Shown here: positions 4,310 to 5,971 of the stretch, piece by piece
Layout: every line of letters begins with the position of its first letter
How positions within the stretch are numbered: the stretch's first letter is position 1
Origin: an uncultured Pantoea sp.
GTDB lineage: Bacteria > Pseudomonadota > Gammaproteobacteria > Enterobacterales > Enterobacteriaceae
NCBI GenBank assembly: GCA_966185695.1
Contig: CBIFUL010000010.1
Coordinates: forward strand, 2,718-66,717
DNA: 64,000 nucleotides
Direction: 5' to 3'
Program-made: the position numbers and the translations under genes
The notes under the pieces: model-generated
Told to the model about the DNA's origin: nothing
The model's input: only the letters and a program-made list of their open reading frames with translations
Databases searched by the model: none

Positions 4310-4343
4310 CTGTCACCTAACTGTCACGTAACCCTCTAATAAT
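4310..4343 (+). promoter_or_regulatory. Pho box (PhoB site) and -10 element upstream of the chemoreceptor
   Basis: CTGTCAC at 4310 and 4321 (11-bp period), then TAATAAT at 4337-4343, about 10 bp downstream. Confidence 0.75.
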
Positions 4344-4369
4344 CCCGTTTTATTTTTAGGGGCGTTGCG

Positions 4370-5971
4370 ATGTCACTCCTGTCTGTTATTTCTTTGCCGT
4401 TACGCTGGCGCAGCCGTTTCACCCTGCGGCTACCGCTGTGGATCACCAGCCTGCGCAGCCAGTTTTTGCTGTTCATCGTGCTGTTCTGCCTGCTGCAGTT
4501 TGCCGGCGTGCTGCTGCTCAATACGCACGTCAATCAAACGCAAACTTCGTTGCAGCAAGCCAATCAGCTGCGGGAAAGGTTGGCGCTGTTGGATAAGGCG
4601 CGCATTGAGCTTCTCACCGCCAGCGATAATAGCCATCGTGCGGGAATTTACCTGATGCAGGATCAGCAAAGCGGTTCGGTGGACAGCTGGAAAAGCCTCG
4701 CCGCCGCCGCCAATGATTCACTCCAACATGCGCAGCAGCTGTTTGCCGATTACCGTGCGCCTGCCAACGGCGCGCTGGCACAAGGCTTTACCCTGCTGGC
4801 CGAGGGCTTGAATGAGCAGCTCAAAGGGTTGGCGGCGAACAACATCGATGCGTTCTTTATGGTGCCGATGCAGGCGTTTCAGCAGCAGTTTAATGATGCC
4901 TGGTTTAGCGAAATCACGCAGGCTAATCAGCAACTGACTCACGTTAATCTCAACACGCTCAGCACCTTGAAGCAGAGTCGCAACCTGTCGCTGATCGTCA
5001 GTGCGGTGCTGATGAGCTTGCTGGTGCTGGCATCCAGTTTGTTGATGCGCGGCGTGCTACTGCCGCTGCGGCGCGCCAACGCGCAGCTCGACAACATTGC
5101 GACCGGCGACCTGATTGCCCGCCACGACGCGCCGAAACGCCAGTCGTTGGAAACGCGTCAGCTATTTTTGTCCATCGATACCATGCGCAGCGGGTTGCAG
5201 CAGATTGTCACGGATATCAACACCGTGGCGGTAAGCGTGGCGGCCGGTGCCGAAGATATGCAGCGGCATAATCAACAGGTGATGCAGCAACATCAGGCGC
5301 AAAACGCCAATTTCCATCACCTGTCGCAGCGTTTGCATCGCGTTTCCGAGGAAGTGGAAATTGGCACGCAGTTCTCGCAGCAGGCGACGCAGGACGCGCA
5401 ATCGGCGGATGCATTGATGCGCAACTGCGCGGTTGAAGTGGATAACATGGAAACCCAGATGGAGCAGATTGTGGCCGCTGCACAGGATATCGCCGGAATT
5501 GTCGGCATGTTGGACAATCTTTCCATGCAAACGCGGCTGCTTTCACTGAATGCCGCGATTGAATCGGCGCATGCTGGCGCTTATGGCCGCAGCTTCTCGG
5601 TGGTCGCCAAAGAGATGGGTGTGCTGTCGCAGCAGAGCGGCGCATCCACGCGCCAGATCGACAGCCTGATTCAGCACACGCAGCAGCATGTGCACAGCGG
5701 CTTCGACAAAGTAAAAGCGCTGGAAGTGCTGTTCGCGCAAATCGGCGTGGCGGTTGCAGACGTGGTAACCCAATTAAATGAGCTTCAGCAAAACAGCGCG
5801 GCACAAAGTCATCGGGTGAAGAAAATCGCGCTTGAGGTGGTAGAAATGAGCGAACAGCTGCAGCAAAACGAAGCCTTAAACGCTCAGCAGGTGCATGCTG
5901 CCGCGCAGTTGCGCGAGCTGTCCGATCGCCTGGCACAGCGCGCGCAGCAGTTTCGCGTGCGCCAGAGCTGA
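4370..5971 (+). CDS. Methyl-accepting chemotaxis protein (TM, Tar-type 4-helix sensor, TM, HAMP, divergent signalling domain; no NWETF pentapeptide)
   Basis: Two hydrophobic segments; HAMP ...IATGDL; tip [27 protein letters not shown]. Confidence 0.85.
   Translation: [533 protein letters not shown]

Follow-up and report, generated by a model that had tools for sequence, protein, structure and literature searches.

A chemoreceptor gene behind a predicted PhoB-dependent promoter in Pantoea and related genera

In the 64,000-nucleotide stretch of an uncultured Pantoea sp. genome analyzed here (contig CBIFUL010000010.1 of assembly GCA_966185695.1, positions 2,718 to 66,717; hereafter the window), a gene at 4370-5971 encodes a methyl-accepting chemotaxis protein (MCP) and stands behind a Pho box that occupies the -35 position of its promoter. 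Taken as a whole, the evidence makes it probable that the locus joins a class-II-type, PhoB-activated promoter to a Tsr-derived receptor that has been stripped of its adaptation elements and is deployed in phosphate-starved cells. The receptor is a good candidate for directing how cells swim specifically when phosphate is low. Chemotaxis under phosphate starvation is understood in molecular terms only in Pseudomonas aeruginosa, where it involves CtpH and CtpL-PstS.

Promoter of the receptor gene

The transcription unit comprises the following features (coordinates are those of the window).

4310-4327, plus strand: Pho box CTGTCACCTAACTGTCAC, that is CTGTCAC-CTAA-CTGTCAC, read directly from the sequence
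4338-4343, plus strand: -10 hexamer AATAAT (AATACT in most orthologs), exactly 10 bp past the box
4358-4362, plus strand: Shine-Dalgarno sequence AGGGG, 7 nt before the ATG, within a conserved leader that is T-rich and about 20 nt long
4370-5971, plus strand: monocistronic coding sequence of a 533-amino-acid MCP-family protein, from the open reading frame and domain matches
5984-6009, no strand: GC-rich hairpin seen in the sequence, a putative bidirectional terminator common to the receptor gene and a convergent gene for an 84-amino-acid ribbon-helix-helix protein

By definition, a Pho box is a pair of 11-bp direct repeats that both contain the 7-bp core CTGTCAT (PMC2648988; PMC4415409). In the box ahead of the receptor gene, CTGTCACCTAACTGTCAC, the 7-bp core CTGTCAC occurs twice, repeated with a period of 11 bp. 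The box lies 60 bp before the ATG at 4370 and takes the -35 position of the promoter, at about -40 to -23. Both cores match the Pho box of Escherichia coli, with 0 mismatches to CTGTCAY-N4-CTGTCAY, and within the window this site is the sole zero-mismatch match to CTGTCANNNNNCTGTCA. A ten-base spacer, GTAACCCTCT, separates it from the AATAAT -10 hexamer; in phoA, too, the Pho box lies 10 bp upstream of the -10. The sequence-only reading of the window had described a near-perfect Pho box followed by a TAATAAT -10 (4337-4343) before the MCP start, which is borne out by the sequence read directly.

The E. coli phoA, pstS and ugpB promoters are likewise built on two 11-bp repeats with a CTGTCAT core that replace the -35 element (PMC2648988). 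The receptor promoter differs from E. coli PhoB promoters in having a single box, a GC-containing spacer within it (CTAA) and an extra element 49 bp upstream, and in driving a chemoreceptor, a kind of member that is absent from the E. coli Pho regulon. A sigma-70 -35/-10 pair (TTGACA/TATAAT) was sought across 4100-6100 and none was found, as expected for a PhoB-dependent promoter, and no Rfam motif was detected at E <= 1 in the promoter or leader of the receptor gene. Because the hairpin at 5984-6009 ends the unit, the gene is read as monocistronic.

Pho boxes and PhoB across the genome

The whole assembly (4.67 Mb, 81 contigs, 55% G+C) was scanned on both strands. Exact CTGTCAYNNNNCTGTCAY sites occur three times, against 0.13 expected as calculated from base composition, and all three precede genes in the right orientation: the receptor gene, ugpB (where the site is part of four phased half-sites) and a CorA-like gene. 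Among the one-mismatch Pho boxes are those of the pstS promoter (two boxes), a phoE-type porin gene and the phn operon in the window. The presence of the same motif at ugpB, pstS, the porin gene and phn indicates that E. coli-type boxes mark the core Pho regulon in this organism, and by sequence match the site at the receptor gene ranks among the best Pho boxes of the genome. A PhoB equivalog is encoded as well (378 bits against a cut-off of 296). The phoB gene starts contig C31, and a Pho-box site at the end of contig C40 resembles the phoB promoter of E. coli.

Outside the window, on the minus strand of contig C6, the gene preceded by the third exact site encodes a 341-amino-acid CorA/ZntB-like transporter and lies behind three phased CTGTCA half-sites, CTGTCATCGTGCTGTCACAGACCTGTCGC. 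Judged from this arrangement, it is a candidate for an unrecognized member of the Pho regulon.

Conservation of the receptor and its promoter

Receptor orthologs with 61-86% identity were present in 18 of the 36 other Pantoea genomes searched, and none was found in 24 genomes from other families of the order. A wider scan yielded 47-52% identical orthologs in Erwinia and in further records labelled Pantoea, and a protein search added members from Paramixta, Acerihabitans and Sodalis. The orthologs are 528-538 amino acids long and start MSLL...; all named members of the family are annotated merely as 'methyl-accepting chemotaxis protein'. Two close orthologs were encountered under other names, one 86% identical in a record labelled 'Enterobacter ludwigii' (L035, CP195344.1) and one 58% identical over the sensor domain in a protein labelled 'Pseudomonas cerasi' (P0062). 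Their gene content suggests that both are Pantoea or Erwinia sequences that carry a wrong label or entered the records by contamination.

An alignment of 34 orthologous promoters (31 distinct) was assembled from Pantoea, Erwinia, Sodalis and Acerihabitans, the encoded proteins being 45-87% identical. Of the 34 boxes, 21 deviate from the Pho box consensus at 0-1 positions, 12 at 2-4 and one at 5. Every promoter has a -10 that reads (A/C)ATA(A/C)T and lies exactly 10 bp from the box, whereas the ten bases between them are almost devoid of information content. Such a fixed arrangement of box, distance and -10 around a drifting spacer is a classical phylogenetic footprint and constitutes the strongest evidence short of experiment. 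The sequence-only reading had listed a lack of conservation of the box in orthologous promoters among the findings that would refute it, and the box is kept in every one of the 34. At Erwiniaceae loci the receptor gene is flanked by dcm (or dcm-queH) and HD-domain genes; in Sodalis another MCP gene lies upstream, and in both Sodalis and Acerihabitans a 2-hydroxyacid dehydrogenase gene lies downstream. Since the promoter is kept in these two genera despite their other neighbours, the regulatory module travels with the gene.

It is very improbable that the box is a chance match or that the gene is a decaying pseudo-receptor. The cytoplasmic signaling domain is 23-31% identical to its paralogs, which are 50-96% identical to each other, and such divergence could be taken as decay. 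Against this stand the low number of exact sites expected, the conservation of 34 promoters at fixed spacing and the state of the coding sequence, which is intact at every orthologous locus examined except for a split gene in one genome. In addition, the variant hairpin tip and the sensor-domain motifs described below are invariant across genera, as under purifying selection. The conservation thus effectively refutes this explanation.

A further alternative, which we regard as highly improbable, is that the repeat serves as the operator of a different OmpR/PhoB-family regulator (OmpR, CreB or one of 15 other paralogs). The genome encodes 16 regulators of this family, the core that is invariant over the 34 promoters amounts merely to G..AC......G..A, and the Erwinia- and Sodalis-type box reads CTGTAAC-N4-CTGACAT, the Erwinia-type half-site TGTAACA resembling OmpR-type GTTACA on the other strand. 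However, the Pantoea sites match both PhoB 7-mers exactly and show the PhoB-specific 11-bp period and the 10-bp offset to the -10, and the same 18-mer is found at ugpB, pstS, the phoE-type porin gene and phn. The box at 4310-4327 conforms neither to the CreB tag, TTCAC-N6-TTCAC, nor to the 10-bp period of OmpR sites. Control of the receptor gene by PhoB is therefore considered very likely. The earlier proposal that phosphate limitation acts on this gene through PhoB is supported, as far as sequence goes, by the 34 promoters and the PhoB equivalog, from which we infer binding of PhoB and induction at low phosphate.

A second conserved element upstream of the box

Two further motifs stand out in the promoter alignment.

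4261-4270, plus strand: ATTT-nnn-TTA, about -89 to -80 from the predicted start site, near-invariant among the 34 promoters
4286-4291, plus strand: CTGTTT, of high information content in the same alignment

This upstream footprint (4261-4291) is conserved in all lineages aligned. The ATTT-nnn-TTA motif begins 49 bp before the box both here and in a Sodalis locus with different neighbours (L064). CTGTTT is placed 24 bp ahead of the start of the box. Since this distance does not keep to the 11-bp phase of PhoB sites, the motif was rejected as a third PhoB half-site. A terminator hairpin was likewise dismissed, as judged by eye, because the stems are inconsistent across genera and missing in Acerihabitans; none of the sites for sigma-54, IHF, CRP, FNR or FlhDC fits by the same inspection, and the footprint matches no other regulator consensus known to us.

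Departure from the flagellar regulon

The genome contains 21 MCP genes, and each was searched for its best Pho box and its best sigma-28 promoter (TAAAGTTT-N11-GCCGATAA). The gene at 4370-5971 is the only one of them with a Pho box; the best candidates at the others have at least 3 mismatches, most of them 4-6. Conversely, 15 of the other MCP genes have a sigma-28 match with no more than 4 mismatches, in which GCCGATAA is usually perfect. A sigma-28 promoter for the receptor gene was rejected, the best match having 5 mismatches, lying inside dcm and lacking GCCGATAA. Judged from these promoter sequences, the gene appears to have replaced the usual sigma-28 promoter with a PhoB promoter.

The periplasmic sensor domain

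4526-4981, plus strand: periplasmic four-helix-bundle sensor domain, residues about 53-204, of Tsr-like fold with an altered pocket, from profile, AlphaFold and Foldseek comparisons

Domain searches place TarH at residues 27-177 and MCPsignal at residues 339-495 of the receptor, the MCP signaling domain (PF00015) scoring 89.8 bits against a cut-off of 34.6. Searched against the Protein Data Bank, a profile built from 20 sensor domains retrieved the Tsr sensor domain at E = 5.6e-17. The AlphaFold model of the domain has a predicted local distance difference test score (pLDDT) of 89.9, and Foldseek superposes it on Tsr (2d4u) with a template modeling (TM) score of 0.75-0.84. The receptor is nevertheless no Tsr by equivalog criteria: it falls far below the cut-offs of all four NCBIfam models considered (Tsr, Tcp, Tar and Tap), with 175 bits against 947 for the Tsr model NF011615.

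The ligand pocket is remodeled in the HMMER alignment. Tsr R64 is replaced by Ser85, N68 by His89 and T156 by Met, and R73 aligns with a gap beside Tyr94. R69 (Arg90) alone is kept among the serine-binding residues R64, N68, R69, R73 and T156, together with F151, F152, P155 and Q157. What the conserved pocket holds is Ser/Asp/Asn/Ser/His, not a cluster of basic residues. The sensor domain has a mean column identity of about 70%, being as conserved as the rest of the protein, with invariant blocks in helix 1, the apical segment (SGSVDSW) and helix 4. That the pocket and apex motifs do not vary between genera points to one particular ligand or docking partner, conserved in the family.

Ahead of the first transmembrane segment, the receptors carry a conserved Arg-rich cytoplasmic N-terminal extension of about 28 residues (4370-4453, plus strand), which Tsr-type receptors lack; S2, P22, W24 and R29 are near-invariant in it, and S27 and L28 are invariant.

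The cytoplasmic signaling half

5051-5215, plus strand: HAMP-like linker, residues about 228-282, which can be aligned in every column to paralog HAMP domains
5519-5638, plus strand: non-canonical hairpin tip, residues 384-423, from comparison with the 21 MCPs of the genome

PF00672 (HAMP) is recorded in some orthologs, and the signaling domain aligns gap-free with the 36H paralogs. The hairpin tip is canonical in 20 of the 21 MCPs, the product of 4370-5971 being the sole departure. In Tsr numbering, the changes are F373M, N376R, R388H, E391A, Q392Y, G395S, A397S, V403M and R404G. Retained are L380, N381, E385, G390, F396, V398 and E402, and the changes are conserved in the family. The variant tip is near-invariant in 22 orthologs and thus appears to be selected rather than decaying.

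Tsr residues that contact CheA-P5 or CheW are those within 4 Å in the 6S1K and 8C5V models (PMC13098124). Seven of the corresponding receptor positions are identical to Tsr (Q374, L378, L380, N381, A383, E385 and A387), and F373M, V384I and I377L are conservative changes, which leaves R388 and R404 as the only contact residues lost. One CheA, one CheW and one CheV-like protein are encoded in the genome, which rules out a second chemosensory pathway as the partner of the odd tip. The sole cheA-cheW locus, on contig C14, is followed by three tandem MCP genes whose products bear NWETF, and the CheV-like gene adjoins another MCP gene on contig C33.

The methylation consensus [ASTG]2-x2-[EQ]2-x2-[ASTG]2 has no match in the receptor or in 21 of the 22 orthologs, compared with 4 matches in each canonical paralog and 1 in an Aer-like paralog. 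The canonical Glu/Gln methylation pairs are replaced by Gln-Ala, His-His and His-Arg. A C-terminal NWETF-type pentapeptide, a feature of a subset of MCPs, was not found either: the receptor ends ...QQFRVRQS, whereas five paralogs end NWETF. The obvious precedent is E. coli Aer, an array member that signals without canonical methylation sites or a pentapeptide. Aer differs in sensing through a cytoplasmic PAS-FAD domain instead of a periplasmic four-helix bundle and in lacking the variant tip; the Aer-like paralog of this genome (C8) also keeps a canonical tip.

When the cytoplasmic part was searched with HMMER against 1.84 billion representative proteins, members of the family scored 312-205 bits and the next protein 124 bits at 29% identity. 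Neither intermediates nor other sensor domains joined to this type of signaling domain were found in that set, and by sequence comparison the cytoplasmic domain forms an orphan lineage. Overall, the receptor can probably enter the chemosensory (Che) array and signal with an altered bias, without methylation of its own. The sequence-only reading had overlooked these departures from an ordinary transducer of the Tar/Tsr type.

Proposed mechanism and alternatives

In the proposed mechanism, scarce phosphate would act through PhoR to yield phosphorylated PhoB, which would bind the two CTGTCAC repeats in place of a -35 element and recruit sigma-70 polymerase to AATAAT. A short-leader, monocistronic mRNA would start at about 4350. 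The product would be inserted as a two-pass membrane receptor and join the cell's single Che array only under phosphate starvation, where a periplasmic cue read at the remodeled Tsr-type pocket or at the apex would alter CheA output. With a signaling part of 36H length that lacks canonical methylation sites and a CheR/CheB tether, the receptor would have no methylation-based adaptation of its own, as in Aer. We think it somewhat more probable than otherwise that the receptor gives a real input to the array.

As to the cue, analogy with known receptors makes a phosphorus compound (inorganic phosphate (Pi), an organophosphate or a phosphonate), sensed directly or through loaded PstS, PhnD or UgpB, plausible, though somewhat less probable than not; the phosphate or phosphonate taxis receptor proposed by the sequence-only reading is thus a guess. 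A more elaborate version, which must be considered improbable, holds that the family is a hitherto unrecognized class of enterobacterial receptor: a Tsr-derived protein was moved from sigma-28 and CheR/CheB to PhoB, docks Pi- or phosphonate-loaded PstS, PhnD or UgpB at its invariant apex (SGSVDSW and a helix motif) in phosphate-starved cells, imposes a non-adapting bias on the shared array that yields a phosphorus-foraging kinesis in place of classical adaptive taxis, and has a variant tip that tunes coupling to CheA/CheW or CheV.

Several observations weigh against the proposed picture. Boxes of the Erwinia type have degenerated to 2-4 mismatches, and that of Acerihabitans to 5, and the conserved footprint further upstream implies, as read from the alignment, a second input or an additional regulator at the promoter. 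The pocket Asp (D86) does not by itself suggest an anion site. Without a methylation consensus, gradient tracking by this receptor alone is doubtful. Arginines that contact CheA/CheW are lost (R388H and R404G), and E391 is changed to Ala; nearly all replacements of Tsr R388 abolish chemotaxis although arrays still assemble (PMC6681711). Finally, searches of the literature for Pho boxes with MCPs, for PhoB or chemotaxis in Pantoea and for Pantoea RNA-seq with pstS and MCPs returned nothing on the receptor family, and an Erwinia amylovora transcriptome paper that was found concerns other MCPs.

Some of these points would also fit a receptor that is under PhoB control but reads something other than phosphorus that matters to starved cells on plants (such as pH, a metal, an organic acid or a signal from the plant), or that senses nothing specific and resets the kinase bias and gain of the array, altering run/tumble behavior as a switch for kinesis or dispersal once phosphate is exhausted. 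The absence of methylation sites and pentapeptide and the R388H, E391A and R404G changes at the tip favor such a role, and Tsr R388 and E385 mutants form trimers and arrays whose outputs are ON- or OFF-shifted or locked, with kinase control mostly lost (PMC6681711). The lack of a basic cluster in the pocket points the same way, as does the fact that no phosphorus-uptake or binding-protein gene adjoins the receptor gene. On the other hand, the degree of conservation of the sensor domain and its invariant pocket and apex motifs indicate a specific ligand or partner, and the known Pho-induced receptors sense Pi (PMC4926252). On balance, we regard a cue or role unrelated to phosphorus as unlikely, but as a serious competitor. 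If the ligand does prove unrelated to phosphorus, the finding shrinks to one more member of the Pho regulon.

Relation to known systems

Phosphate-starvation-induced chemoreceptors are already known as a kind. CtpH (PA2561) of Pseudomonas aeruginosa mediates taxis to Pi under phosphate limitation and binds Pi directly through a four-helix-bundle periplasmic domain (PMC4926252; PMC12691637). The earlier remark on a missing Tar-fold equivalent in Erwiniaceae thus needs correcting, since CtpH itself has a sensor domain of this type (PMC4926252). In contrast to the Pantoea receptor, with its 36H length, variant tip and lack of a methylation consensus, CtpH has a canonical 40H signaling domain (PMC12691637). 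The second low-phosphate receptor, CtpL, reads Pi-loaded PstS, so that a Pho-regulon binding protein is the actual ligand (PMC4926252). CtpL has a 286-residue sensor domain that is not a four-helix bundle, whereas the Pantoea receptor has a four-helix bundle and no linked binding-protein gene. Beyond the domain families they have in common, no sequence relationship to CtpH was detected in the sensor-domain search, which returned proteins of Erwiniaceae and the Sodalis group and none from Pseudomonas except the apparently mislabelled 'Pseudomonas cerasi' record.

Among relatives of solved structure, Tsr of E. coli and Salmonella comes closest to the sensor domain, and it shares the topology and cytoplasmic length of the receptor, but the Pantoea protein lacks NWETF, the methylation sites and the sigma-28 promoter. 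Among plant-associated Enterobacterales, the PacP/sCache_PC3 family of Pectobacterium binds phosphorylated C3 compounds; it differs in having an sCache_2 sensor instead of a four-helix bundle, and neither Pho-box control nor Pantoea members are reported for it (PMC12395807). In Enterobacter cloacae, Pi taxis is described in a secondary account as dependent on the Pho regulon (Kusaka 1997, cited in PMC6250842).

What is new here is a defined receptor family of Erwiniaceae and the Sodalis group, an apparent exchange of a sigma-28 for a PhoB promoter, and a variant-tip signaling domain free of methylation sites on a Tsr-derived sensor. To our knowledge, no receptor has been identified for the Pho-dependent Pi taxis reported in an enterobacterium in 1997. 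The Erwiniaceae, which include plant pathogens, epiphytes and phosphate-solubilizing Pantoea, gain a readily testable candidate consisting of one promoter, one gene and a soluble sensor domain of 150 residues. The family also represents a natural experiment in receptor design: a Tsr-like protein has lost its methylation sites and come to differ at R388, E391 and R404, yet is under strong purifying selection. This bears on how much alteration of the hairpin tip is compatible with array membership and kinase control.

The C-P lyase cluster and neighbouring genes

The window also encodes a carbon-phosphorus (C-P) lyase cluster, phnF..P with phnCDEE (29683-41364, minus strand), about 24 kb from the receptor gene. 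The phn operon opens with phnF, a GntR-type gene (40639-41364), which is preceded by the one-mismatch Pho box CCGTCACGGCGCTGTCAT (41454-41437); phnC, phnD and two copies of phnE come last (29683-33366), whereas in E. coli they come first. The sequence-only reading was right about the cluster, but its use as support for the function of the receptor does not hold, the association being merely syntenic. Although phnJ is present in 19 of 19 Pantoea genomes with the receptor and in 10 of 18 without it, a functional link was rejected in favor of synteny: the genes lie 10-100 kb apart in relatives, the genomes do not count as independent because of their phylogeny, and phn is widespread in any case.

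Convergent with the receptor gene, positions 6014-6268 (minus strand) encode the 84-amino-acid ribbon-helix-helix protein, which has weak matches to Arc, FitA-like proteins and DUF6364; a gene for a partner toxin is not evident beside it. On the other side of the receptor gene lies dcm.

2845-4245, plus strand: dcm, transcribed divergently from vsr

The vsr gene (2218-2817, minus strand) encodes 199 amino acids, the Vsr domain being preceded by a long N-terminal extension. Its divergent orientation to dcm differs from the same-direction overlap of the two genes in E. coli, and the same layout is present in Pantoea osteomyelitidis (L047).

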